Positions 1 through 28,577 of a DNA stretch of 64,000 bases are shown here, piece after piece. The first letter of the stretch is position 1. Each line of letters begins with the position of its first letter. The DNA lies in NCBI GenBank assembly GCA_964016885.1, contig OZ024757.1, forward strand, positions 7,564,001 through 7,628,000. The letters run 5' to 3'. The notes under the pieces are model-generated. The model had not been told where the DNA came from. It made no database searches and was given only the letters and a program-made list of their open reading frames with translations. Both the position numbers and the translations under genes were made by a program. This DNA comes from Eledone cirrhosa (taxonomy: Eukaryota).

Positions 1-142
1 ATGGCAGGGTTATCGAGTGAGATTGAAAGAACAAGTCATGAAGACAAACTGACCCAAGTTTGATAAATAAATCTTAAAAAACAAAACTATTGTTATTTTT
101 TCCTAGACAGTAATCTTGCGAATAATTATCGTCCGCACCCTG
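1..142 (+). mobile_element. Right end of a Tc1/mariner element (paralog of 19384-20244)
   Basis: Near-identical to 20101-20244; ends in TIR ...TTATCGTCCGCACCCTG followed by TA. Confidence 0.8.
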
Positions 143-225
143 TATGTATACATATATAATATATGATATATAATATATATATACTTTGTTCATACTGCCT
201 CTCTGTTTTGTTCCCGTTCAATTTT

Positions 226-270
<45 letters not shown>

Positions 271-282
271 GTGTGTATATAT

Positions 283-1769
283 AAAAAGGGGATGCTCTGG
301 AGAGGAACAATTATAGGGGTATAAAACTGATGGATCGGGTTATGAAAGTGGCAGAAAGGATATTAGCACAACTGATTAGAGAAAGGGTCAAACTTGATGA
401 AATGCAGTTTGGTTTTGTGCCTGGGAAGAGAACAACAGATGCCCTCTTCTTGGTGAGACAATTGCAAGAGAGGTTCTTAGAGAAGAATAAGTCACTATAC
501 TTAGCCTTTGTTGACCTAGAGAAGGCCTTTTGATAGGGTGCCCCGATCTGACATCTGGTGGTCCCTAAGGAAACTTGCTGTTGTGGAATGGCTTGTAAGG
601 ACAGTGCAAACTATGTACATGGGTGCTGTCAGTAAAGACAGAGTAGGAATGGAGTTTAGTGAGGAATTCCAGATATAAGTAGGAGTACATCAAGGTTCGG
701 TCCTCAGCCCGCTCTTGTTCATTATAGTCCTCCAAGCCATAACAGAGGAGTTTAAGACTGGCTGTCCATGGGAACTTCTCTATGCTGACGATCTGGTTCT
801 TATAGCAGAATCAGTAGAGTTGCTAGAGAATAAATTCTGGCTATGGAAACAGCAGTTGGAAGCAAGAGGACTGAGAGTGAACCTAGCTAAGACAAAAGTG
901 TTGATGAGTAGAAAACAGGACAAAACTCTGATTCCGTCAGGGAAATGGCCATGTTCGATATGCAGAAAAGGAACTGGCATAAATTCTATAAAATGCACAC
1001 AATGCAGATCCTGGGTACACAAGAGATGTAGCGGGATAGCAGGCAAACTAACAGGTAGGGAGAAATATGTATGCAGTAGATGTACAGGGAAAGTTGGCAG
1101 TAGTAATCGTAGTGATAGACACATTTTTCAAATACAGTTGGGTTCTATAGAAGTGGTGGATAGCCTCCGGTACCTAGGAGATCAGATTAGCATGGGAGGA
1201 GTGTGTTCCGAGGCCATAGTATCTAGAATAAGGACGGGTTGGAAGAAGTTTAGGGAGCTGATTCCTCTGCTGAAGAAGGTTTTCTCCCTGCGTATGAAAG
1301 GCCGGTTGTATGATGCCTGTGTGAGGAGCGCGATGCTGCATGGTAGTGAGACATGTCAGCAAATGCAGAGGATATGCTACGGCAGAAGAGAAATGAGGCA
1401 AGCATGCTCAGTTGGATGTGCAGTGTATATGTGCTTGAACAACCCAGCATAAATGTGTTGAGAGAGAAACTTTGTCTGAGAGGGATAGAATGTAGTGTAC
1501 GGGAGAGGAGACTGAGGTGGTATGGACATGTGATGAGCATGGAGGATGACTGATGGGTGAAGAAGTGCCAGGAAATGCCAGTTGAAGGAAGACGTGGTAG
1601 AGGTAGACCACGAAAAACATGGGCGGAGGTGGTGAGAACAGACCTCAGATGATTGAAGCTCACTATGGAGATGACGAAGGACCGTGACGAGTGGAGAGAT
1701 GCTGTGCTGAATAAGAGCCGTCCCACCCTTGTAAGCAGGGAAAAGCGAACGTAAAATGATGATGATGAT
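283..1769 (+). mobile_element. 5'-truncated, decayed RTE-clade LINE, subfamily A (RT, PHD-like finger, C-terminus)
   Basis: ORF pieces with QFGFVPG, AFVDLEKAF, LLYADDL, YLG and ERRLRWYGHV; stops and frameshifts; ends GTAAAA(TGA)n next to (TA)n. Confidence 0.9.
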
Positions 1770-1785
1770 ATATATATATATATAT

Positions 1786-2010
1786 CATCAACATCAGTGT
1801 TTTACGTCCGTTCTTCTATGCTAGCATGGGTTTGATGGGTTGTCCTGTTGTGGGCAGTGTCCGGTTGGCTGACCTTGTCTTGCTCATATGGGAACTGATT
1901 TTGGCTTGATTTCTACAGATGGATGCCCTTCCTAACACCAACCTTATTTACAGTGAGTGCTGGGTGCTTTTCTTCCGTGGTGCCTACATGTCCACTTTAT
2001 AGTGTGGGTT
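1786..2010 (-). mobile_element. RTE subfamily B 3' UTR, tail-to-tail with the preceding element
   Basis: Reverse complement of the 3' UTR at about 25880-26100. Confidence 0.8.
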
Positions 2011-2125
2011 GATATATATATAATATATATATATAACATATATATATATATATAATATATATATATCATATAATATATATATATCATATAATATATATAA
2101 CATATATATATAATATAATATATAT

Positions 2126-2704
2126 ATCTGAGAGAGAGACTGAGCATAAGAGGAATCAAATGCTGTGTGCAGGAGAGGCAGTTGCGTTGGTATGGACATG
2201 TGATGCGTATGAAGGATGACAGCTGCATAAAAAGGTGCAGAGCACTAGAAGTCGATGGAAGCCGCGGAGTGGGGAGACCCAAGATGACCTGGGATGAGGA
2301 GATAAAAGCCGACCTTACCCAATTACATCTCTCAAAGGTGATGACACACGACCGTGACCTCTGGCGTCACGCAGTAATACAGAATACCCGACCTCCCATG
2401 GGTACAAGCTGAAGCATATAGACAATATGCCCCCTCACTCCCCACTGCAAGGTGGTCGTGGAGGTGCCACGGCAAAAAAGCACTCAGCCCACACTGTAAA
2501 GTGGACGTGTAGGCGCCACGAAAAAGCACCCAGCACTTACTGTAAATGAGGTTGGTGTTAGGAGGGCATCCAGCTCTAGAAATCAAGCCAAATCAGTTCC
2601 TTTATGAGCAAGGAATGGTCAGCCGACCAGACACTGCCCAGAACAGAACAACCCGTCTAACCCATGCTAGTGTGGAAGAATGGACGTAAAACGGTGATGA
2701 TGAT
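2126..2704 (+). mobile_element. RTE subfamily B 3' end
   Basis: ERQLRWYGHVMRM...GRPKMTW ORF piece, 3' UTR and (TGA)n tail; matches 25530-26100. Confidence 0.85.
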
Positions 2705-2828
2705 ATCTAAAATAGAGAATGTCTAAAACTCAAGAACCAACCAACCGATTGTTTTCAAATTTACACATGTAATATTTATAGTCCTGTGAGTGTTTTTCAA
2801 ATTTTCAATGCCCTAGGGACCGCATTAG

Positions 2829-4668
2829 GTTAATCCTAACTTTGCTGACTGCTCCCCAAAACATGGCTTTCACAAGCCATTCATCTACTCCTAGTTTTCT
2901 AAGAGCCCACCAGATTACAGCATGTCGAACTCTGTCAAAGGCTTTCACAAGGTCGACAAATGCCAAGTAGAGTGGCTTACTTTTAGCTAGGTACTTTTCC
3001 TGTAACTGCCTCAGAAGGAAGAGGGCATCAGTGGTGCCTCTTCCTGGTACAAACCCAAATTGCATCTTGTCTATTTTCACCCGGTCCCTAATCAACTGTG
3101 CTATAACTCTTTGTTACTTTCATGACCTGGTCCATCAGCTTCATACCTCTCAAGTTTCCTCTATATAGTGCATCGCCTTTACCTTTGTAGCAGTTGACAA
3201 TGATGCTACTGCACCAATCTTTTGCTATGACACCTAGTATTACCTGGTTAACAATACGTGTGGTTATAGTGTGACCTACAGACCCAGATGCCTTCAGCAT
3301 CTCGGCAGCTATACTCGATGGACCAGTTGCCTTCCCCATCTTCATATCTTTGATTGCCTTACTTACTACGTTGCTGCTGACTTGTACTGCTGGCCCCTCT
3401 ATAGGGTCTACTTGGGGTAGGGTCTCTTCTTCCCATGCATTCTCCTCATTTAGTAATCTCTCATAATGACTCTTCCATGCATCTTTCTTCTCAACACTTG
3501 TGAGGGCAAGCTCACCTTTATCATTCCGGATACACTTCTCTCCAATGACATCACAACTATCTCTGACACACTGCCTCGCAATCTTGAATACCTCCTGTTT
3601 CTGGCCCTCAGGTTGCAAAACATGCTTGAATTTTCTATCCTCTGCTTCCCTCCTAGCTAAGTATACTTGTCCCCTAACTTCCCTCTTGGTCTCTATGTAA
3701 TGTACCCTGCTCCCCCCATTCTTCCATTCTTTCCATGCCTGTCTCTTGGCCTTAACTGCTTCATCTACCTTATTGTTCCACCACCAAGTCACTCTCCTCC
3801 TGCTTGAGGTCTTACTCCAGCCACAGACCTCATCCGTCGCCTCTAGTAAATTATTTTTTAGGAACTCCCAGTTCTCTTCTACATTGAATGTCTCTATCTG
3901 TTCTTCTTTACTGTCGTAGGCATTGAGTAAAATATCTTTAAATCTGTTACTGGTTGAGGGGACTTTCATCTTCCAGATCTTTCTTCTCCAGGTTGGTCTC
4001 TGTTTCCAGGTTCGACTAGTTCTGGCCGTGAGGTCGCTGACAACTAAGCTATGTTGGGATGTACATTCCTCACTAGGGAAGGCTTTTGTGTTTACGACCG
4101 TCCATCTGTCACGTCCTCTGATGAGGATAAAATCTATCTGACTGGAGTGCTCCCCTGATCTATAGGTGATCAGGTGGTTGTCGGGTTTTTTAAAGTTTGT
4201 GTTACATATCGACATGTCATTGGCGTCGCAGAATTCTAGAAGTCTGAATCCCTCCTCATTTCTTGTGCCAACCCCTTGGCCTCCATGTACTCTATTGAAG
4301 CCGTCGCAGTGTTTACCTACGTGTCCGTTAAAATCTCCTGCGATGATTAGGAAGTCATTGTCGTCTGTTAGAGCAGTAGTGTGCATTAGGGACTCGTAAA
4401 ACCTATCCTTAAGTTCGGCTGGCAGCCCCGATTGGGGTGCGTCAGCTGATATTATTGTGGTAATTGTTTTATGCAGGACTAGTCTGAGTTTAATGATTCT
4501 TGCATTTACCCTGTACACTGAGATTACTTTATCTACCTACTTGTCAGCTAGTAGTATACCTACACCACCCATCCCATCGTCATTTGTCACCCAGAAAAAT
4601 TCGTAGCACCGACTTTTTCCTACAAGGACTCTGGCACACTCTCCTCTCCATCTAGTCTCTTGCACACA
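2829..4668 (-). mobile_element. RTE subfamily B, APE endonuclease to RT segment, inverted
   Basis: ORF 3088-4518 (GDFNGH, SQIDFIL) is near-identical to part of ORF 22827-24740; frameshift near 3090. Confidence 0.9.
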
Positions 4669-4829
4669 TGTATATATATATTATACAGATATATATGTGT
4701 CACTTGCTGGATCTGCTAGAAGGACCCAGATAATATGAGATGTTCTCCCGGCTGTATCATATACTGCAAATCTATGCAGATGTATACACATATATACACA
4801 GACACATAAACATACACATGTAATTATAC

Positions 4830-5222
4830 ACACATTGAAGTGGTTGATAGCTTCTGTGACTTAATTAGCAGTGGAGGATGACTGTATAACACCTGCCAAT
4901 AAAATATGATGCTGCATGGTAGTGAAACATGGGCTGTGACAGCAGAAAAAAGTGTAGACTGGAGAGGAATGAAGCAACCATGATTCATTGGATGTGGGTG
5001 AAGAAGTGCCAGGACATCCCGGTAGAAGGAAGCCATAGTAGAGGTAGACCAATAAAGATCTGGACAGAGGCTGTGTGAACTGACTTCAAATGACTGACTC
5101 TCACAGAGGAGATGACAAAGGAACACGACAAGTTGAAAGATGCCATGTTGAGAAGGACATGTCCAACCCAAGGAAGCATAGAAAAACAGACATAAAAACA
5201 GTGATGATGTTGATGAAGATGA
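4830..5222 (+). mobile_element. Old, decayed RTE 3' fragment (subfamily D)
   Basis: MLHGSETW and GRP-like remnants with a (TGA)-type tail; paralog at about 27195-27720. Confidence 0.7.
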
Positions 5223-5272
5223 CGTACATATACACACATACATAATAAATAAATCAAATACAGATATGCACA

Positions 5273-5607
5273 GTGGAGGCACATGGCTTAGTGGTTAGAG
5301 CATTGGCCTTGCAATCGAAAGGTTGTGAGTTCAATTCTCAGACCGTGTGATGTGTTGTTTCCTTGAGCAAGACACTTTATTTCACATTGCTCCAGTTTAC
5401 TCAGCTGTAGAAATGAGATGATAGGGACTGGGGTTCATATTATTCCACTGCAAAGTGGCCGTGGAGGTGCCACGGCAAAAAAGCACCCAGCACTCTCTGT
5501 AAATGAGGTTGGTGTTAAGAAGGGCATCCAGCTGTAGAAATCAAGCCAGAATCAGTTCCCGTCCCACCCTTGCAAGCAGGGAAAAGCGGACATAAAAAGA
5601 TGATGAT
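5273..5607 (+). mobile_element. tRNA-derived SINE with an RTE-derived 3' tail
   Basis: A box TGGCTTAGTGG, B box GAGTTCAATTC, TCCTTGAGCAAGACACTTT core and RTE 3' UTR with (TGA)n; flanked by GATATGCACA/GATATGTACA; absent at paralogous site 27762. Confidence 0.8.
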
Positions 5608-5869
5608 GATATGTACATACTTATATACAAACATATACATGGACACAAATTTCTACACACATACATTCACATATAGCATATGTCAATTCTGAACAATACA
5701 GTTTTGTCAGCACAAGTCTTGGTTAAAACATCTAAAATAAAATGAAAGAAGAATAATTTCTTAGTAAAACAGTTTTATTCAAGATATTAACAACATTTTA
5801 GGTGAGTGACATGGTTTTTATCTTGTCTGATTGTGTTTGTGTTGCATCAAGTAACCTTTACAAGAGAAT

Positions 5870-6300
5870 TATTTATCACAGACACCACAGTGATATGGTT
5901 CCTCTCTTGTATGTGCTAGTGTGTAGGGAAGCCACAACATTTAGAGAAGGATTTATCACAGTGATATGCTTCCTCTCCTGTATATGTTAGTGTGTAGTGA
6001 AGCCACAACATTTAGAGAAGGATTTACCACAGACACCACAGTGATATGGTTCCTCTCCTGTATGTTAGTGTGTAGTGAAGCCACAACATATAGAGAAGGA
6101 TTTATCACAGACATCACAGTGATATGGTTCCTCTCCTGTATATGTTAGCGTGTAGGGAAGCCACAATATATAGAGAATTATTTACCACAGACATCACAGG
6201 GATATAGTTCCTCTCCTGTAAGTTATTGTGTAGTGAAGCCACAACATTTAGAGAAGGATTTACCACAGACATCACAGTGATATGGTTCCTCTCCTGTATG
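5870..6300 (-). repeat. About 78-80 bp minisatellite derived from a degenerate C2H2 finger, about 6 copies
   Basis: GTGATATGGTTCCTCTCCTG-like motif recurs at about 5890, 5961, 6041, 6119, 6199 and 6277; resembles the reverse complement of TGEKPYHC codons. Confidence 0.75.
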
Positions 6301-6712
6301 TTAGTGTTTGGTGAAACCAAAATTAGAAAATGAATTACATGGACTGAGGTGGTAAGGGCAGACCTCTGAACCTCACGGTGTAGATGACAAAGGACCGTGA
6401 CAAGTGAAGAGATGCTTTGCTGAATAGGACCCATCCCACCCTTGCAAGCAGGGAAAAGCGGACGTAAAATGATGCTGATGATGATGATGATAATATGGTT
6501 TCCCTCATCTATGCATATATTTAGTTAAATTGCTGCATTAAAAGATATATTTTCCAAACATATCAAAGTGATATGGCTTCCCACCTGTATATGTTTGTGT
6601 GAAGTTAATGTAGCATTGAAAGAGAATGATTTACCATAGATATTACACTGATATATATTTGTATTCTCATTAATTCACAATTTTGAGAGGATTTATCACT
6701 GATGTCAATGCG

Positions 6713-8930
<2,218 letters not shown>

Positions 8931-16778: not shown

Positions 16779-19300
16779 TCATCATCATCATCGTTTAACG
16801 TCCATATTCCACGCTTGCCTGGGTTTGGACGGGAGTTTTCCCACTTGAGGCAAGAGTGTTTGTCTTGTTCGCATAGGACTGTCTGGCGGATTTTCTACGG
16901 CTGGATGCCCTTCCTAACACCAACCACATTTACAGTGTAGAACTGGGAGGTTATTACCGTGTTACCTACACGGCCACATTACAGCGTGGACTGTGTTTTT
17001 TTGTCGTGAGACCTACACGACCTCATTTGTTTCGGGCTGGATGTTGTGGTACCAACGTAACTTTACATGGAAAGAGGTGAAGTGGATAGGGTGTGGGTAT
17101 ATTTTGTTAGGTGTCTACTGACTGTAGTAGGTTTTACTTTGTATTTAGGTAAGGCGGGTCTTCTCTATTACTATGTAGCGCCAAAGATCTCGGTCCAGAG
17201 ACATTGTCTTGGAGAGGTGTAAGTGTGTGAGGTCGGAATTTATCAAGTCGTCCCAGGTTTTTCTGGATCTGCCTACTCGGTGGCTACCGCCTATTTTTAT
17301 TGCCCTGCACTTTTTTATACAGCTGTCGTTTTTCATGCGCATCACGTGACCATACCAACGTAGTCTTCTCTCGAGTAAACAACATCTGATCCCTCTTATT
17401 CCTAATTTCTCCCTTAGTTTGTTTATGCTTTGCCGTTCACGTATATTACTATTACACATCCAGCGGAGCATGCAAGCTTCGTTCCTCTCTAGTCTGCGTA
17501 TATCCTCTGCACACAATGCCCAGGTCTCACTGCCATGCAACATTTATGTTCGTATGCAGGCATCATACAGCCTACCTTTCATTTTTAAGGAGAACCCTTT
17601 AGCGGCTAATAGTGGTATAAGCTCTCTGAACTTTTTCCATCCAGTTCTGACTCTAGCTACTGTACTTTCAGAGCACCCTCCCCCACGGCTGATCTTGTCA
17701 CCCAGGTAACGGAAGCTGTCCACTATTTCTATAGAACCAGCTGTGCAATGGAATGAGCTAGTATTCAGTGGGCACTTGCTGCTACTTATTGCACCAGAGC
17801 ACCGACCACATATAAAAGCTATGTTCTTAGTTAGCTTACTTGTGATCCCCCTACATCTTTTATGCACCCATACTTTGCATTTGGGACATAAAATGGAGTT
17901 TCTACCTACTCCTTTCCTACACACTGAGCATGTCCATTTCCCGGAAGGGACCGGCGCCCTATTTTCCTTCCTACAAACTAGAACTTTAGTCTTAGACAGG
18001 TTAATTTTAAAGCCTTTTGATTCTAGGCCATGCTTCCATGTTTGGAATTTCTTCTCTAGTTCGGCCATTGATTCAGCTATGAGCGTTAGATCATCTGCGT
18101 ATAGGAGTTCCCATGGGCAGCCGGTCTTGAACTCCACTGTTATAGCCTGAAGGGCAATAATAAATAGTAGGGGGATAAGAACGGAACCCTGATGAACACC
18201 AACTTTTACGCTAAAATCTTCACTATATTCGTTGTTAATTCTAACCTTGCTGACTGTTTCTTTATACATGGCTTGTATAGCTCTCACAAGCCATTCATCA
18301 ACACCTAGTTTTCTAAGAGCCCACCAGATAATGGAACGGGGGATTCTGTCGAAGGCTTTCTCCAAGTCGACAAAACCTAAGTATAGGGGTTTACTTTTAG
18401 CTAGGTACTTCTGTAGTTGTCGTACAATTAAAAGAGCGTCTGTGGTACTTTTGCCAGACACAAACCCGAACTGCATTTCATCTAGATCAATTCTCTCTCT
18501 GATTAGTTGCACTATTACTTTTTCTGTGACCTTCATGACCTGGTCGATTAATTTAATGCCTCTATTGTTACTCCTATCTAGGGCATCTCCTTTACCCTTG
18601 TAGCAGCTAATGATGATGCTGCTACGCCAGTCCTTCGGAACAACCCCATTCTGTATGACTTGGTTTACTCTCCGTGTGACCATGGTGTGTCCCACCGTTC
18701 CAAGGCTTTCAGCATTTCAGCAACTATTTCCGAAAGCCCTGCCACCTTACCCGTCTTTATATCTTTGATTGCCTTACTTATTATACTACCTTCGACTAAC
18801 ACTGCTGTTCCCTCTATTGGGTCGATGTGGGGGAAACTGTCTTTCTCCATTTATTCTCCTCATTTAGTAGCCTTTCGTAGTGACACTTCCAAGCTACCTT
18901 CTTATCAGCGTCAGTGATGGCAAGTACGCCATCATCATTAAGTACACACTTCTCCCCGAAAATATCACGGTTTTCCTTGACACATTGCCTAGCAATCCTG
19001 AACACCTCACGTTTTTGGTCCTCGCGTTGTAGAACATGCTTGAACTTTCTTTCCTCTGCTTCCCTTCTTGCGAAGTACACTTGTCTCCTAGCTTCCCTCC
19101 TGGCCACCAGATAGTGTTCTATACTTCCCCCATCCCGCCATGCTTTCCAAGCCTGCTTTTTGGCCTTAATTGACTCCTCCACCTTACTGTTCCACCACCA
19201 TGTTACTCTCCTCCTGCCTATAGATCTGCTCCAGATACAGATTTCATCTGCTGCCATCAGCAAGTTTGCTTTCAGCAATTCCCATTGTTCCTCTATATTG
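16779..19300 (-). mobile_element. RTE subfamily C, long 5'-truncated copy
   Basis: ORFs 18814-19416 (part), 17544-18695 (RT with YADD and PHD-like finger) and 17145-17543; (TGA)n tail at about 16779. Confidence 0.92.
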
Positions 19301-19383: not shown

Positions 19384-20244
19384 CATGTGTGGACGATATT
19401 TGGTCGCAATTTTCAACTGCTAATTTTATGCAAATTTTTTTAACTCCGTTGTCACTCTTGTCCTCATAAAAACAGTGACTATATTTCCATTATTTATTTT
19501 CAGAATAATTGATTATGAATAATTTTGAACCTCCAAATTTGTGGCAGAGACACGGAGTTCTTCTTGTAATCTGCGCCGGGAGGACAAATAAGACCAGAAT
19601 ATCAACTCCCAGAACAACAGGTGGCTTGCTGTCTCATCCAAAGACGTGCCCAGAGTCATACAGATAAAGTTTCCACCGACAACATTGGTCTTAGGTGTCG
19701 TCATGCCACCTGACTGCTTCCCTGAGGGTCTCAAGCTGAACACCGATGGCTACATTCGCGTTCTGAGTGAGGTAGTAAAGCCCTGGATCAACCAGGTTGC
19801 TGCAGGTAGGCCGTACGTGTGGCAGCAAGACTCAGCGCCCTGCCATACCAGCTGAAAGATCCAAGCCTGGCTGACAGAGAACTTCGTCGACCTCACCGCC
19901 CCTGACATCTGGCCTCCCAGCTAGCCTGACTGCAATCCTCTCGACTTCTTTGTGTGGAGCGCAGTGAAACAAGACACCAACAGATCTAGCTACAATACGA
20001 AAGACGATCTGAAGGCCAGGATTACAAGTGCCTTTAGGGGCCTAAGTAAGGGGACAGTGACGAAGGCCTTTAGCCGGTTTCGAGGCCGTCATCAAAGCCA
20101 ATGGCAGGGTTATCAAGTGAGATTGAAAGAACAAGTCATGAAGACAAACTGACCCAAGTTTGATAAATAAATCTTAAAAAACAAAACTACTGTGTTATTA
20201 TTTCCTAGACAGTAATCTTGCGAATAATTATCGTCCGCACCCTG
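19384..20244 (+). mobile_element. Internally deleted Tc1/mariner-superfamily DNA transposon (maT/DD37D-like motifs)
   Basis: YVWQQDSAPCHTS and WPP..PDCNPLDFFVWS transposase motifs; imperfect 26-27 bp TIRs (CATGTGTGGACGATA... / ...TATCGTCCGCACCCTG); TA flanks. Confidence 0.85.
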
Positions 20245-20267
20245 TATGTATACATATATAATATATG

Positions 20268-20297
<30 letters not shown>

Positions 20298-20298
<1 letters not shown>

Positions 20299-21788
20299 AA
20301 AAGGGGATGATCTGGAGAGGAGCAATTATAGGGGTATAAAACTGATGGATCGGGTTATGAAAGTGGCAGAAAGGATATTAGCACAACTAATTAGAGAAAG
20401 GGTCAAACTAGATGAGATGCAGTTTGGTTTTGTGCCTGGGAAGAGTACAACAGATGCCCTCTTCTTGGTGAGACAATTGCAAGAGAGGTTCTTAGAGAAG
20501 AATAAGTCACTATACTCAGCCTTTGTTGACCTAGAGAAGGCCTTTGATAGGGTTCCCCGATCTGTCATCTGGTGGTCCCTAAGGAAACTAGGTGTTGAGG
20601 AATGGCTTGTGAGGACAGTGCAAACTATGTACAGAGGTGTTGTCAGTAAAGTCATGGTGGGAATAGAGTTTAGTGAGGAATTCCAGATATAAGTAGGAGA
20701 ACTTCAAGGTTCGGTTCTCAGCCTGTTCTTGTTCATTATAGTCCTCTAAGCCATAACAGAGGAGTTTAAGACTGGCTGTGCATGGGAACTTCTCTATGCT
20801 GACGATCTGGTTCTTATAGAAGAATCAGTAGAGGAGATAGAGAATAAATTCTGGCTATGGAAACAGCAGTTGGAAGCAAGAGGACTAAGAGTGAACCTAG
20901 CTAAGACAAAAGTGTTGATGAGTATAAAAGAGGACAAACTCTGATTCCGTCAGGGAAATGGCCATGTTCGATATGCAGAAAAGAACTGGCATAAATTCTA
21001 TAAAATGCACACAATGCAGATCCTGGGTACACAAGAGATGTAGCGGGATAGCAGGCAAACTAACAGGTAGGGAGAAATATGTATGCAGTAGATGTACAGG
21101 GAAATTAGATAGTAGAAGTCGCATTGATAGACACATTTTTCAAATGCAGGAAGGCGCTATAGAAGTGGTGGTTAGCTTCCGGTACCTAAGAGATCAGATT
21201 AGCATGGGATGAGGGTGTTCCGAGGCCATAGTGTCGAGAATCAGGACGGGTTGGAAGAAGTTTAGGGAGCTGCTTCCTCTGCTGACGAAGAAGGGTTTCT
21301 CCCTGCGTACGAAAGGCCGGTTGTATGATGCCTGTGTGAGGAGCGCGATGCTGCATGGTAGTGAGACATGGGCAGCAACTGCAGAGGATATGTGACGGCT
21401 GGAGAGAAATGAGGCTAGCATGCTCCGTTGGAGGTACAGTGTAACTGTGCGTGAACGACTCAGCATGAATGTGTTGAGAGAGAAACTGTGTCTGAGAGGG
21501 ATAGAATTTAGTGTACGGGAGAGGAGACTGAGGTGGTATGGATATGTGATACGCATGGAGGATGACCGATGGGTGAAGAAGTGCCAGGAAATGCCAGTTG
21601 AAGGAAGACGTGGTAGCGGTAGACCACGAAAAACATGGGCGGAGGTGGTGACAACAGACATCAGATGATTGAAGCTCACGGTGGAGATGACGAAGGACCG
21701 TGACGAGAGGAGAGATGCTGTGCTGAATAAGACCCGTCCCACCCTTGCAAGCAGGGAAAAGCGAACGAAAAATGATGATGATGATGAT
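20298..21788 (+). mobile_element. RTE subfamily A fragment (paralog of 283-1769)
   Basis: Same 5' truncation point and flanks as 283-1769. Confidence 0.9.
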
Positions 21789-22074
21789 ATATATATATAT
21801 AATCATCACTGTTTTACGTTCGTTCTTCTATGCTAGCATGGGTTAGACAGGTTGTCCTGTTGTGGGTGTGTCCGGTTGGTTGACCTTGTCTTGCTCATAT
21901 AGGAACTGGTTCTGCCTTGATTTCTACAGCTGGATACCCTTCCTAACACCAACCTTATTTACACTGAGTACTTTTCTTCCGTGGTGCCGACATGTCCACT
22001 TTATAGTATGGATTGATATATATATAATATATATATATTATATATATATATATTATATATATAATATATATATT

Positions 22075-22762
22075 TAAAAACAAATAACGAAACGAAATTA
22101 AATTTCGTTTCGCTTCTAACTCACTTTTGTATGACTGACGCTTAAACAATTAAGTTAAAGTGTACATCTACATATGTATACGGAAGTATTAGTATGCATA
22201 TAAATACACACATGTATACATATGTACATGTACTCAGCTTTTCACTAGACACTTTACAGTGAGTGTCAGCTAGTCTGTATGTAACCACACAGGCGGACCG
22301 GGTCAGTCATACAAAAGTGAGTTAAAAGCGAAACGAAATTTAATTTTGTTTCGTTATTTGTTTTTATCGTTTCCGCTGAACCGGTGCGTACAATGACTCG
22401 CGTTCTATGCAAATTAGTCTACCCACTACTAATTTTCATAGAAAAAGCATATAACGATATGTGCTTTTACAATTCTCCAGAGAAGCCGGAAGATGGGTAA
22501 ATATTGCTGATGAGATGTAATAACATCGAAACTAGTCCAATATTCCTGTCTGGCCCTCTGGAGAATAGAGGAAATGTGTTTCCTTGAAAACTCGTATGAC
22601 TCTAAAACCCGGTCCGCCTGTGTGGTTACATACAGACTAGCTGACACTCACTGTAAAGTGTCTAGTGAAAAGCTGAGTACATGTACATATGTATACATGT
22701 GTGTATTTATATGCATACTAATACTTCCGCATACATATGTAGATGTACACTTTAACTTAATA
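22075..22762. mobile_element. Hammerhead-bearing non-coding element (retrozyme/PLE pLTR-like), head-to-head arrangement in (TA)n
   Basis: 22076-22140 is the reverse complement of 22302-22365 and 22150-22302 that of 22607-22760; hammerhead at 22500-22544. Confidence 0.75.
22500..22544 (+). ncRNA. Minimal type-I hammerhead ribozyme
   Basis: AATATTG-CTGATGA-GATGT(AATA)ACATC-GAAA-C(TA)G-TC/CAATATT: perfect 7-bp helix I, 5-bp helix II, intact core, GUC site, palindromic ACTAGT helix III. Confidence 0.9.
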
Positions 22763-22799
22763 TATATTTAACATATATATATATATATGTATATTTCAT

Positions 22800-25700
22800 A
22801 TACGAAGAGCAGGAGAAATCGTAGAAATGCTAGAGCGAAAGGAAATTGATGTATGCTGTGTGCAAGAGACTAGATGGAGAGGAGAGTCTGCCAGAGTCCT
22901 GGTAGGAAAAAGTCGGTGCTACAAATTTTTCTGGGTGGGAAATGACGATGGGATGGGTGGTGTAGGTATACTACTAGCTGACAAGTGGGTAGATAAAGTA
23001 ATCTCAGTGTACAGGGTAAATGCAAGAATCATTAAACTCAGACTAGTCCTGAATAAAACAATTACCACAATAATATCAGCTTACGCACCCCAATCGGGGC
23101 TGCCAGACGAACTTAAAGATAGGTTTTACGAGTCCCTAATGCACACTACTGCTCTAACAGACGACAATGACTTCCTAATCATCGCAGGAGATTTTAACGG
23201 ACACATAGGTAAACACTCCGACGGCTTCAATAGAGTACATGGAGGCCATGGGGTTGGCACAAGAAATGAGGAAGGATTCAGACTTCTAGAATTCTGCAAC
23301 GCCAATGACATGTCGATATGTAACACAAACTTTAAAAAACCCGACAACCACCTGATCACCTATAGATCAGGGGAGCACTCCAGTCAGATAGATTTTATCC
23401 TCATCAGAGGACGTGACAGATGGACGGTCGTAAACACAAAAGCCTTCCCTATTGAGGAATGTACATCCCAACATAGCTTAGTTGTCAGCGACCTCATGGT
23501 CAGAACTAGACGAACCTGGAAACAGAGGCCAACCTGGAGAAGAAAGATCTGGAAGCTGAAAGTCCCCTCAACCAGTAACAGATTTAAAGATATTTTACTC
23601 AACGCCTATGACAGTAAAGAAGAACAGATACAGACATTTAATGTAGAACGGAACTGGGAGTTCCTAAAAAATAATTTACTAGAGGCGACGGATGAGGTCT
23701 GTGGCTGGAGTAAGACCTCAAGCAGGAGGAGAGTGACTTGGTGGTGGAACAATAAGGTAGATGAAGCAGTTAAGGCCAAGAGACAGGCATGGAAAGAATG
23801 GAAGAACGGGGGGAGCAGGGTACATTACATAGAGACCAAGAGGGAAGCTAGGCGACAAGTATACTTAGCTAGGATGGAAGCAGAGGATAGAAAATTCAAG
23901 CATGTTTTGCAACGTGAGGACCAGAAACAGGAGGTATTCAAGATTGCGAGGCAGTGTGTCAGAGATAGTTGTGTTGTCATTGGAGAGAAGTGTATCCGGA
24001 ATGATAAAGGTGAGCTTGCCCTCACAAGTGCTGAGAAGAAAGATGCATGGAAGAATCATTATGATAGATTACTAAATGAGGAGAATGCATGGGAAGAAGA
24101 GACCCTACCCCAAGTAGACCCTATAGAGGGACCAGCAGTACAAGTCAGCAGCAATGTACTAAGTAAGGCAATCGAAGATATGAAGATGGGGAAGGCAACC
24201 GGTCCATCGGGTATAGCTGCCGAGATGCTGAAGGCATCTGGGTTTGTAGGTCACACTATAACCACACGTATTGTTAACCAGGTAATACTAAAAGGTGTCA
24301 TACCAAAAGATTGGTGCAGTAGCATCATTGTCAACTGCTACACAGGTAAAGGCGATGCACTAGATAGAGGAAACTATAGAGGTATAAAGTTGATGGACCA
24401 GGTCATGAAAGTAACAGAAAGAGTTATAGCACAGTTGATTAGGGACCGGGTGGAAATAGACGAGATGCAATTTGGGTTTGTACCAGGAAGAGGCACCAGT
24501 GATGCCCTTTTCCTTGTGAGGCAATTACAGGAAAAGTACCTAGCTAAAAGTAAGCCACTCTACTTGGCATTTGTTGACCTTGAGAAAGCCTTTGACAGAG
24601 TTCCACGTGCTGTAATCTGGTGGGCTCTTAGAAAACTAGGAGTAGATGAATGGCTTGTTAAAGCGGTACAAGCCATGTATAGGGGAGCAGTCAGCAAAGT
24701 TAGGATTGGCAATGAGTATAGCGAGGAATTTAGCGTATAGGTTGGGGTCCACCAGGGCTCTGTTCTTAGCCCCCTCCTGTTCATCATATTCCTGCAGGCA
24801 ATAACGGAGAAGTTTTAGACCGGATGCCCAAGGGAACTCCTGTATGCTGATGACCTCACACTCATAGCTGAATCTATGGTAGAACTAGAGAATAAATTCC
24901 AAACTTGGAAGCAGGGACTAGAAAGAAAGCGTCTCAAAGTCAACATGACAAAAACTAAGGTCCTTGTAAGTACATGAGAAAACAGAACCCAGATCCCCTC
25001 AGGGAAATGGCCTTGCTCAGTATGTAGGAAAGGTGTAGGTAGGAACTCCATTCTCTGCCCCAAATGCAAACAAGGGGTACACAAGAGATGTAGCGGGATC
25101 TCAGGAAGCTTAATTAAGAATGTAGGCTTCACATGCAGCAGCTGTGCTGAGACAGCAAGCAGCAAACAGCCACAGAAAACAAGTACCACCAATCTCTGGG
25201 AGGGCTCTGTAGAAACAGTAGATAGCTTCTGCTACCTAGGTGACCAAATTAGCAGTGGAGGTGGGTGTCCAGAAAGTACAATAACTAGGGTAAGAACGGG
25301 ATGGAAGAATTTAGGGAACTACTGCCACTGCTAGCTGCAAAAGGCTTCTCCCTCAGAATGAAAGGCAGACTGTATGATGTGTGTATCCGAAAAGCAATTT
25401 TGCATGGTAGTGAGACCTGGGCGCTGAAGGTGGAAGACTTACGTAGATTAGAGAGAAACGAAACCTGCATGCTCCGATGGATGTGTAACAGTAATATATG
25501 TGAACGACAAAGCATAAATGAATTGAGAGAGAGACTGAGCATAAGAGGAATCAAATGCTGTGTGCAGGAGAGGCGGTTGCTCTGGTATGGACATGTGATG
25601 CGTATGAAGGATGACAGCTGCATAAAAAGGTACAGAGCACTAGAAGTTGATGGAAACCGCGGAGTGGGGAGACCCAAGATGACCTGGGATGAGGTGATAA

Positions 25701-26102
25701 AAGCCGACCTTACTCAATTACACCTCTCAAAGGCAATGACACACGACCATGACTTCTGGCGTCACGCAGTAATACAGAGTACCCGACCTCCCATGGGTAC
25801 AAGCTGAAGCATATAGACAATATGCCGCCTCACCCCCCACTGCAAGGTGGTCGTGGAGGTGCCACGGCAAAAAAGCACCCAGCCCACACTATAAAGTGGA
25901 CGTGTAGGCGCCACGAAAAGCACCCAGCACTCACTGTAAATGAGGTTGGTGTTAGGAAGGGCATCCAGCTGTAGAAATCAAGCCAAATCAGTTCCTGTAT
26001 GAGCAATGCATGGTCAGCCGACCAGACACTGCCCACAACAGCACAACCCGTCTAACCCATGCTAGCGTGGAAGAACGGAGGTAAAACGGTGATGATGATG
26101 AT
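22800..26102 (+). mobile_element. Near full-length RTE subfamily B LINE, inactivated
   Basis: 637-aa APE+RT ORF, then a CAG>TAG stop at 24738-24740 and further lesions (about 24814, 24975, 25300); coding remnant ends 25807; 3' UTR and (TGA)n tail. Confidence 0.93.
22827..24740 (+). CDS. RTE ORF: apurinic endonuclease plus N-terminal RT, prematurely stopped
   Basis: VCCVQETRW, SAYAPQ, GDFNGH, SQIDFIL, NYRGIKL, QFGF and AFVDLEKAFD motifs. Confidence 0.85.
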   Translation: MLERKEIDVCCVQETRWRGESARVLVGKSRCYKFFWVGNDDGMGGVGILLADKWVDKVISVYRVNARIIKLRLVLNKTITTIISAYAPQSGLPDELKDRFYESLMHTTALTDDNDFLIIAGDFNGHIGKHSDGFNRVHGGHGVGTRNEEGFRLLEFCNANDMSICNTNFKKPDNHLITYRSGEHSSQIDFILIRGRDRWTVVNTKAFPIEECTSQHSLVVSDLMVRTRRTWKQRPTWRRKIWKLKVPSTSNRFKDILLNAYDSKEEQIQTFNVERNWEFLKNNLLEATDEVCGWSKTSSRRRVTWWWNNKVDEAVKAKRQAWKEWKNGGSRVHYIETKREARRQVYLARMEAEDRKFKHVLQREDQKQEVFKIARQCVRDSCVVIGEKCIRNDKGELALTSAEKKDAWKNHYDRLLNEENAWEEETLPQVDPIEGPAVQVSSNVLSKAIEDMKMGKATGPSGIAAEMLKASGFVGHTITTRIVNQVILKGVIPKDWCSSIIVNCYTGKGDALDRGNYRGIKLMDQVMKVTERVIAQLIRDRVEIDEMQFGFVPGRGTSDALFLVRQLQEKYLAKSKPLYLAFVDLEKAFDRVPRAVIWWALRKLGVDEWLVKAVQAMYRGAVSKVRIGNEYSEEFSV

Positions 26103-26156
26103 ATAATATATATAACATATATATATATATAATATAATATATATATCTATATATAT

Positions 26157-26654
26157 CTGAGAGACAGACTGAGCATCAGAGGAATCAAGTGCTGTGTGCA
26201 GGAGAGGTGGTTGTGTTGGTATGGACATGTGATGCGTATGAAGGATGACAACTGCATAAAAAGGTGCAGAGCACTAGAAGTCGATGGAATCCGCGGAGTG
26301 GGGAGACCCAAGAAGACCTAGGATGAGGTAATAAAAGCCGACCTTACCCAATTACACCTCTCAGACAATATGCCCCCTCAACCCCCACTGCAAGGTGGTC
26401 GTGGAAGTGCCACGGCAAAAAAGCACCCAGCCCACACTGTAAAGTGGACGTGTAGGCGCCACGAAAAAGCACCCAGCACTCACTGTAAATGAGGTTGGTG
26501 TTAGGAAGGGCATCCAGCTGTAGAAATCAAGCCAAATCAGTTCCTTTATGAGCAAGGCATGGTCAGCCGACCAGACACTGCCCAGAACAGGACAACCTGT
26601 CTAACCCATGCTAACGTGGAAGAACGGACGTAAAACAGTGATGATGATGATGAT
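26157..26654 (+). mobile_element. Second RTE subfamily B 3' end, tandem to the previous copy
   Basis: Repeats 25530-26100 with an internal deletion of about 80 bp near 26362. Confidence 0.85.
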
Positions 26655-26655
26655 A

Positions 26656-26820
26656 TCTAAAATAGAGAATGCCTAAAACTGAAGAACCACCCAACCGATT
26701 GTCTTCAAACTTTACACATGTAATATTTATAGTCCTGTGAGTGTTTTGAGTGTTTTTCAAATTTTCAATGCCCTAGGGACCGCATTAGGCGATTTAGCGA
26801 TCTCCGGGCCATTCTGCTAG
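26656..26820 (+). mobile_element. Short non-autonomous Helitron
   Basis: 5' A|TC, 3' CTAG|T with a GC-rich subterminal segment; truncated paralog at 2705-2829. Confidence 0.6.
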
Positions 26821-26829
26821 TAATATATA

Positions 26830-27030
26830 TAGTGGTTAGAGCATTGGGCTTGTAATTTAAAGGTTGTGAGTTCAATTCTCGGACCGGGTGATGTGTTATG
26901 TCCTTGAGCAAGACACTTTATTTCACGTTGCTCCTTCTACCTGGAGTTGTGACCAATAGATAGTATTAGCAATTGGAAAGACCAATGGAAACATTGTTTC
27001 TTCAGTCCAATTTGACGAAAGTCGATCGAC
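26830..27030 (+). mobile_element. tRNA-derived SINE
   Basis: TAGTGGTTAGAGC and GAGTTCAATTC boxes with TCCTTGAGCAAGACACTTT core; same body as 31246-31460. Confidence 0.75.
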
Positions 27031-28577
27031 TGACGATATATGTATATATATATATTATACATATATATATATATATATATGTGTCACTTGCTGGATCTGC
27101 TAGAAGGAGCCTGATAATATGAGATGTTCTCCCGGCTGTATCATATACTGCAAATATGCAGATGTATACACATATATACACAAGTAATTATACACACATA
27201 GAAGTGGTTGATAGCTTCTGTGACTTAATTAGCAGTGGAGGATGACTGCATAACACCTGCCAATAAAATATGATGCTGCATGGTAGTGAAACAAGGGCTG
27301 TGACAACAGAAAAAAGTGTAGACTGGAGAGGAATGAAGCAACCATGCTTCATTGGATGTGCCATTTAAGTGTGAGAGAAAGGCAGAGCTTGGACAAGTTG
27401 AGGGAGAAGCTGGGTTTAAGAGGGAACTTAAGAGATGTGTAAGAGAGAAGACTGCATTGGTACGGACATGTGATACACATGGATAATGTCAGCTGGGTGA
27501 AGAAGTGCCAGGACATCCCAGTAGAAGGAAGCCATAGTAGAGGTAAACCAAGAAAGACCTGGACAGAGGCTGTGTGAACTGACTTCAAACAACTGACTCT
27601 CACAGAGGAGATGACAAAGGAACACGACAAGTTGAAAGATGCCATGTTGAGAAGGACATGTCCAACCCATGGAAGCAAAGAAAAACGAACATAAAAACTG
27701 TGATGATGTTAATGAAGATGACGTACATATACACACATACATAATAAATAAATCAAATACAGATATGCACATACTTATATACAAACACAGATACAACATA
27801 TACATGGACACAAATTTCTACACACATACATTCACATATATATAGCATATGTCAATTCTGAACAATACAGTTTTGTCAGCACAAGTCTTGGTTAAAACTT
27901 CTACAAATAAAATTAAAGGAGAATAATTTCTTAGAAAAAAACAGTTTTACTCAAGATATTAACAACATTGGTGGCACTATTTTAGGTGAGTGACATGGTT
28001 TTTATCTTGTCAAAGTTGTGTTTGTATTGCATCAAGTAACCTTTACAAGAGAATTATTTATCAGATACCATAGTGATATGGTTCCTCTCCTGTATGTTAG
28101 TGTGTAGGGAAGCCACAACATTTAGAGAATGATTTACCACAGACATCACAGGGATATGGTTCCTCTCCTGTATATTAGTGTTTAGTGAAACCAAAATTAG
28201 AAATTTATTTACATGGGTGGAGGTGGCGAGAGCAGACCTTTGAAGATCACGGTGTAGATGACGAAGGACCATGACAAGTGGAGAGATGCTTTGCTGAATA
28301 GGACCCATCCCACCCTTGCAAGCAGGGAAAAGCGGACGTAAAATCATGATGATGATGATATGGTCTCCCTCATCTATGCATATATTTAGTTAAATTGCTC
28401 CATTAAAAGATATATTTTCCAAACATATCAAAGTGATATGGCTTCCCACCTGTATATGTTTGTGTGAAGTTAATGTAACATTGAAAGAGAATGATTTACC
28501 ATAGATATTACACTGATATATATTTGAATTCTCATTAATTCACAATTTTGCGAGGATTTATCACTGATGTCAATGCA

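Follow-up and report, generated by a model that had tools for sequence, protein, structure and literature searches.

The window, as we call the complete stretch of 64,000 nucleotides from Eledone cirrhosa that was analyzed (assembly GCA_964016885.1, contig OZ024757.1, positions 7,564,001 to 7,628,000), contains many fragments of LINEs of the APE-endonuclease/RT type, C2H2 zinc-finger arrays (28578-30311, with a paralog near 7574-8044) and TA microsatellites. One of the (TA)n runs is interrupted by an insert at positions 22075-22761, in which an inverted part on the minus strand is followed, in head-to-head orientation, by a copy on the plus strand. The plus copy comprises 460 nt, begins with segment A (22302-22366), continues through segment B, which contains a ribozyme, and finishes with segment C (22607-22761), the 3' part of the unit. 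Its end at 22761 is the first of two 3' ends of the insert and lies 224 nt past the predicted cut site of the ribozyme. Read leftward from the inversion junction, the minus-strand part consists of an inverted, 5'-truncated copy of C that lacks the ribozyme (C', 22149-22303), of a linker of 9 nt (22140-22148), by which C and A were connected in the source template and which forms the inner tail, and of the first 65 nt of a next unit (A', 22075-22139), which form the outer tail and carry the second 3' end. C' is identical to 22607-22761 at 154 of 155 positions and A' to 22302-22366 at 63 of 65, so that the C arms differ by one mismatch and the A arms by two. At the junction (22302-22303) the two halves overlap by a microhomology of 2 nt. 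The sum of plus copy and linker gives a unit length of 469 nt, with a GC content of 37%; the linker amounts to 10 nt if a shared T is counted, as was done in the first-pass annotation of this DNA. The tail of 74 nt is present at the left end only.

These data bear out that earlier annotation where it had proposed an inverted copy of a unit of about 470 nt within a TA run, with the 3' ends of both strands facing outward and with no meaningful ORF. The longest ORF starting with ATG encodes 63 amino acids on the plus strand and 24 amino acids on the minus strand, and the former starts at 22574 and crosses low-complexity DNA into the flank. A second copy of the element was not found in the 64-kb window.

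Two types of small element were considered for the insert and rejected. A MITE or another DNA transposon does not fit because in-register terminal inverted repeats are absent, the left arm beginning 74 nt inside the insert, and a tRNA-type SINE does not fit because the element has neither a Pol III A or B box nor a poly(A) signal on the sense strand.

The TA run to the left of the insert (22014-22074) is broken by AA/TT and the run to the right (22762-22800) is followed by a 5'-truncated copy of a LINE with APE endonuclease and RT. A direct repeat of 12 nt on the plus strand, ATATATATTTAA, which the first-pass annotation had missed, flanks the insert at 22066-22077, where its last 2-3 nt overlap the end of the element, and at 22760-22771, where its first 2 nt do so. 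The 12-mer lies in low-complexity DNA and occurs four times in the 64 kb, two of these at the junctions, and its 9-nt core is present in 6 of the 118 TA runs of the window; this rarity makes it a credible target-site duplication. The remaining copies of the 12-mer are located at 40681-40692, which is the end of a TA run, and at 45528-45539, and they might mark the ends of related TA-targeting insertions.

The window also harbors a segmental duplication (1-8600 versus 20100-30900) that includes a gene for a C2H2 zinc-finger protein, with an ORF of 577 aa on the minus strand (28578-30311). The zinc-finger part of the duplication is inverted, and several of the breakpoints are located in TA runs. 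The paralogous TA run (2012-2128), which had been described as free of the element, is indeed free of it and retains the landmark to the right of the insertion. However, the LINE copy of 3.3 kb that borders the element (~22800-26100) is missing there as well, and the paralogous run therefore either never received the two insertions or has undergone a deletion. Whereas the arms of the insert differ at 3 of 220 positions (1.4%), the duplicated left flanks differ at 74 of 989 (7.5%; Fisher p = 2e-4), which indicates that the insertion is younger than the segmental duplication, unless the arms have been converted.

Hammerhead ribozyme, predicted initiator and intron, and RNA fold

A perfect minimal hammerhead with a GUC site had been claimed for the plus copy, and our analysis agrees with this claim, as a complete type I core is found at 22500-22544 on the plus strand, with a minimal palindromic helix III of the dimer type and a predicted cut after C22537. 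Helix I consists of 7 bp (22500-06 with 22538-44), the core CUGAUGA starting at 22507 is intact, helix II consists of 5 bp with a 4-nt loop and is followed by GAAA, and helix III is reduced to the 6-nt palindrome ACUAGU, with GUC at 22535-22537. The Rfam model Hammerhead_HH9 matched with 31.8 bits (E = 5.3e-6 in a search of 751 nt), which is below its gathering score of 52, and an Rfam search of the whole window yielded no hammerhead at gathering score. A stem-checked hammerhead descriptor matched the real window three times, but neither any of 2,000 shuffled versions of the element nor any of 20 shuffled windows, and the single match within the element is on the plus strand. The 101-nt hairpin that encloses the ribozyme folds with a z-score of -5.6. 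Matches to Rfam miRNA families (mir-297 and others) were far below gathering scores and were dismissed, since they arise from TA/TG-rich hairpins.

The other two descriptor matches, also of type I, are located at 38550-38600 (plus strand, core at 38557) and at about 39485-39550 (minus strand, core at 39542), and helix III of the latter is palindromic. Their folding z-scores are only 0.9 and 0.3, and neither coincides with an Rfam hammerhead match; possibly they are decayed ends of Penelope-like elements (PLEs).

Dimer cleavage of PLE hammerheads is said to have been described by Luense in 2017. A minimal, palindromic helix III characterizes the hammerheads of metazoan PLEs, and such minimal hammerheads are reported to cleave poorly as monomers (Cervera 2014, PMC4209133). 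The palindrome of helix III forms a self-duplex of -4.8 kcal/mol, and when two hammerheads were cofolded, helix II, not helix III, was paired between the molecules, so that the case for dimer cleavage here draws on the palindrome and on the literature. This hammerhead would be efficient only as a dimer or with the help of a protein, so that the single-ribozyme copy would probably cleave poorly.

At the very start of the plus copy, the motif TCAGTC (22303-22308, plus strand), is initiator-like and is the sole match to the initiator consensus in these 460 nt. Transcription would then start at about 22305, and the plus copy begins 1-3 nt upstream of this putative +1. A predicted intron of 164 nt (22317-22480, plus strand) shows a GTGAGT donor, a branch-like CTAAT at 22429 and a pyrimidine-rich CAG acceptor. 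The acceptor at 22480 is the best pyrimidine-rich one and belongs to the stem at the base of the hammerhead hairpin. Initiator, donor and acceptor were jointly present in 4 of 20,000 shuffles, although the criteria for this count were set post hoc, when the motifs had already been seen. The order of the motifs, from which promoter and splicing are predicted, matches the promoter-intron-ribozyme order of Penelope, for which an internal promoter is reported together with an intron 46 nt downstream of the start (Schostak 2008, PMC2377424); in D. virilis the intron is described as ending at helix I (Cervera 2014, PMC4209133). Within the predicted intron, there is a hairpin of 13 bp (22327-22355), which pairs perfectly in the left copy and has a G-U pair in the right copy, and the tail ends about 10 nt past this hairpin.

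The A-B part of the plus copy (22302-22606) is predicted to form a multibranch RNA domain with four long hairpins, closed by pairs between about 22305-22312 and 22595-22602, with an MFE of -102.0 kcal/mol (z = -8.2, 60 shuffles). The start of A and the end of B form a stem in this fold, and the inverted arm sets in 4 nt past its foot. When the unit was folded as a circle, an MFE of -148.0 was obtained, compared to -95.1 ± 5.2 for 60 shuffles (z = -10.2), with 68% of the nucleotides paired versus 60% in the shuffles, and the resulting fold was branched and not rod-like.

Probable affiliation with Penelope-like elements and retrozymes

The insert is young and well preserved and is probably a non-autonomous PLE insertion, in which the 469-nt unit would be a pLTR-type module, composed of initiator, 5' intron, minimal hammerhead and 3' segment, that was moved in trans. 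That the element is of the PLE type, whatever its mode of mobilization, we regard as very likely. It shares with the endonuclease-bearing (EN+) PLEs (Penelope/Poseidon, Neptune, Hydra) the head-to-head inverted truncated copy, the tail at one end, the short target-site duplication and the (TA)n or AT-rich target, and also the minimal hammerhead of type I that precedes the 3' end. The initiator and 5' intron that lie ahead of the ribozyme in those PLEs are predicted in our case from motifs. According to the account by Arkhipova, a typical Penelope insertion contains an adjacent shorter inverted pLTR and, optionally, a tail on one arm only, the head-to-head arrangement is the commonest and target-site duplications in A. 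vaga are 8-10 bp long (Arkhipova 2013, PMC3846280). Inverted 5'-truncated copies, tails and a (TA)n bias are also described for PLEs by Craig, who mentions that hammerheads are universal in canonical PLEs, Hydra among them, and reports that non-autonomous, pLTR-forming PLE derivatives exist (Craig 2021, PMC8557442). Unlike the EN+ PLEs, the element lacks an ORF for RT-GIY-YIG, its longest ATG ORF having 63 codons; its tail of 74 nt is about twice as long as the published PLE tails of 30-40 nt, and its candidate target-site duplication has 12 nt, including the overlaps of 2-3 nt, versus 8-10 bp. As the unit leads back into its own start after 469 nt, the tail corresponds to the start of a next unit and not to that of an ORF. 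Among 16 ORFs of the window there was no match to GIY-YIG, and the RT ORFs tested were of the LINE type, so that these ORFs include no autonomous partner of the element.

Animal non-LTR retrozymes have been defined by Cervera and de la Pena (Cervera 2020, PMC7229834) and by Li, Clavereau and Pollet (bioRxiv 2026), and the latter text derives them from pLTRs. The best reading of the element is that of such a retrozyme, present as one unit plus tail. Like the animal retrozymes, it is a non-coding and strongly self-paired unit with a GC content below 50% and one type I hammerhead, it has a candidate target-site duplication of more than 4 bp and its C-linker-A junction points to a head-to-tail or circular source. 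Its length of 469 nt compares with a range of 150-450 nt given for retrozyme units, or of 51-972 nt in the account of Li 2026. In contrast to the canonical hammerheads of those retrozymes, the hammerhead of the element is minimal, and an inverted arm, a tail or an intron do not figure in the available descriptions of retrozymes in Cervera 2020 and Li 2026. With one ribozyme at the locus, the element does not qualify as an 'active' dimer by the two-ribozyme criterion of Li. Another comparable element is MRC1 of the Chlamys elements, which also is a non-coding PLE derivative, and elements of the MRC1 type are described as forming pLTRs and head-to-tail insertions; unlike the element from Eledone, however, the Chlamys elements are green-algal and, as presented there, mostly without hammerheads (Craig 2021). 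Most likely, therefore, we are dealing with a new family of a known kind and not with a new type of system.

Plant LTR retrozymes and viroid-like RNAs also combine a hammerhead with a small, self-paired, non-coding unit, and both were considered and rejected. The former carry a type III hammerhead, direct LTRs, PBS/PPT and a target-site duplication of 4 bp, whereas the element has a single type I hammerhead, inverted arms and a 12-nt repeat. Viroid-like RNAs lack a DNA phase, and an integrated one would be expected to show ribozymes of both polarities and a rod-like fold, whereas in the element the ribozyme is of one polarity and the fold is branched.

In a search of the openly accessible literature, the family of the element was not found in print, and it may already be catalogued in Repbase, subscription journals or bioRxiv supplements. 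The ribozyme motif had no match in the supplement of Craig 2021, where line breaks could mask one, and that paper was the only one retrieved on hammerhead-containing Penelope elements in octopus; none was retrieved that ties octopus Penelope to C2H2 genes. The octopus Hydra element, as given there, carries a different hammerhead (Craig 2021, PMC8557442).

Template and mode of insertion

The presence of the C-linker-A junction in the minus part and of an uncut ribozyme site in the plus copy means that the template was longer than a cut monomer. To this extent, the first-pass annotation was right in deducing a tandem concatemer or a circle from the C-to-A junction, as a template of more than one unit is needed. 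A circle is not required, since linear read-through of the order A-B-C-linker-A accounts for all features, including the stop of the plus copy at the initiator, and we lean towards a linear RNA on which priming took place twice. The same annotation had singled out the unit as circularly permuted, which is not supported as a special feature, as the layout is that of a standard PLE insertion and no more than 3 nt separate the beginning of the plus copy from the initiator-like motif, with which an intron-like stretch opens; to judge from its motifs, the unit is probably not permuted and would start at its own transcription start.

A purified PLE protein has been shown to cut AT-rich DNA on both strands and to extend both; it copies uncut RNA, from two internal positions that delimit the tail (Frangieh 2024, PMC11167929). 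In the mechanism that we propose, Pol II would use the initiator with which A begins to transcribe a tandem or partially tandem source and would read through (A-B-C-linker-A and so on), and the RT/GIY-YIG protein of an autonomous PLE would bind the unspliced and uncut RNA in trans and nick both strands of the (TA)n run about 10 nt apart. One target end would then prime cDNA synthesis at the end of C, with extension up to the 5' end of the RNA, and the other would prime where the next A ends, 74 nt past the first site, with synthesis stopping at the foot of the A-B stem. Joining of the two cDNAs via the 2-nt microhomology, followed by fill-in, would generate the head-to-head arms, the one-sided tail and the target-site duplication. 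Tandem copies could, in addition, release 469-nt monomers, which may circularize.

If instead the template was a ribozyme-cut and re-ligated circular RNA of 469 nt, copied by a PLE RT from two starts, in line with the first-pass annotation's circle and the rolling-circle model of retrozymes, a single molecule would contain both the intact cut site crossed by the plus copy and the C-to-A junction crossed by the minus copy. Such a circle would be strongly folded, as the z-score given above suggests, circular RNAs are documented for retrozymes of coral, mussel and axolotl (Cervera 2020, PMC7229834), and circular templates have already been proposed for PLEs (Cervera 2014, PMC4209133). However, the plus copy stops on the initiator-like motif with which A begins, where a circle would offer no end, and the cut site coincides with no boundary of the insert. 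Also, given the poor cutting by monomeric minimal hammerheads (Cervera 2014, PMC4209133), the finding that the PLE of anole needs no cleavage and that no reads end at its cut site (Frangieh 2024, PMC11167929), and the 8 of 9 Xenopus retrozyme dimers reported as uncleaved (Li 2026), a circular template seems unlikely. A further proposal retains the element and the enzyme and ascribes the inversion to self-priming, in which an antisense template folds back (Arkhipova 2013). It would account for the head-to-head arms and for the retention of the intron (Arkhipova 2013, PMC3846280), and an odd palindrome of 9 nt (4 bp) at about 22296-22304 overlaps the junction; yet the junction palindromes described in that work measure 15-38 nt. 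As the arms join via a microhomology of only 2 nt, and as C, with which the inverted arm starts, lies 305 nt away from where the plus copy begins, we consider self-priming quite improbable.

Twin priming is known for L1 and copies an upstream part of the template in inverted orientation. A structured RNA might have been moved in this L1-like way by the machinery of RTE-like LINEs, as the window is full of such LINEs beside TA runs and one of them lies directly to the right of the element. This route is very improbable, because the element shares neither a 3' end nor a (GAT)n tail with the LINEs of the window and because twin priming would give neither outward-facing 3' ends 74 nt apart nor a hammerhead of the PLE type. 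Least credible of all, to the point that we would be astonished if it were true, is an inverted part produced by misassembly or by a chimeric read; inverted PLE structures are reported to trouble assemblies (Craig 2021, PMC8557442), but here there are 3 differences between the arms over 220 sites, 9 nt of the left arm are absent from the right copy and the 12-nt direct repeat flanks the whole insert.

Mobilization of animal retrozymes by PLE enzymes has been hypothesized from co-occurrence and from similarity to pLTRs (Cervera 2020, PMC7229834; Li 2026), and the authors of Li 2026 describe their data on the retrozyme life cycle as limited. The insertion described here joins, at a single locus, a unit of the size of a retrozyme with a PLE footprint, i.e., inverted arm, tail, target-site duplication and TA target, and with an apparent promoter-intron-ribozyme layout. 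It thus links retrozymes to PLE enzymes and provides a compact substrate for testing PLE trans-mobilization and template choice. As such it exemplifies known biology well, and specialists would readily recognize the layout. It is doubtful whether it belongs to an active retrozyme family that is nearly unchanged across several species and has its own Pol II initiator and a retained intron, a circular RNA of 469 nt and the full Penelope footprint. If it did, the mobility of retrozymes would be tied directly to PLE enzymes, and the copies of that family would decide between linear read-through and circular template and also whether splicing switches the ribozyme, the acceptor being part of the hammerhead hairpin's closing stem.

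Related sequences and the surrounding window

In a word search of public sequencing runs, 5 of the 22 listed runs, from 3 studies and with 3 organism labels, contained 52-57% of the 56 words sampled from the element, and four further runs contained 21-29%. The 22 rows included 16 runs with words, from 12 studies, and 7 rows with small shares were not used. No RNA run was among those listed, which has no bearing on expression. The shares in the five best runs indicate that a near-identical sequence exists outside the assembly, with the restrictions that one of these runs may derive from the source sample and that the shares bear on related sequence and not on the junctions.

The ribozyme motif of the element itself had no match in metagenome contigs, and a relaxed motif of core and helix III was found in 109 stretches of metagenome contigs and in 2 of viral contigs. 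When 106 of the relaxed-motif loci were compared with A-B, no homology was detected beyond one core match of 31 nt. An RT ORF on the hammerhead strand was present at 26 of 45 loci with a helix I of at least 4 bp, versus 5 of 33 loci with a weaker helix I; these counts refer to 78 metagenome loci of at least 1 kb, include several near-duplicates, and 11 of the 26 had seeded the profile. Pfam RVT_1 was recognized in 12 of 20 of the metagenome RTs and GIY-YIG in none, a PDB search gave weak, generic RT matches and no clade was assigned by the tool. Their DK(N) motif resembles DKG, a PLE motif according to Craig 2021. All that these loci show is that ribozymes of this type accompany retroelements and small tandem units.

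Several of the metagenome contigs (L017, L020, L031, L036, L055 and others), of 3.1-4.3 kb, encode one long RT ORF with the motifs ADKN, QxxGTAMG and RYIDD; in this set no GIY-YIG was found, a hammerhead is located downstream and the termini form direct repeats of about 127 nt. They are either tandem or circular endonuclease-free Penelope-like elements or the outcome of assembly overlap. Other loci (L018, L029, L032, L035, L038, L057, L059, L074 and L080) consist of RT-free direct repeats with hammerheads, have periods of 491-1902 nt and resemble retrozymes.

Elsewhere in the window, the region 42600-51000 is a very large TA/TG-rich repeat block with a GC content of 10-22% and a GC skew of up to 0.87, and part of it belongs to an inverted duplication involving 41.5-42.5 kb and 47.4-49.1 kb. 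The LINE RT ORFs at 679-1452 and 17544-18716 show a PHD-finger-like match right after the RT domain. Finally, a tRNA-like head at 5281-5349 (Rfam, 29.2 bits) is repeated near 26830-26934 and 31340-31460, and these repeats probably represent a tRNA-derived SINE.
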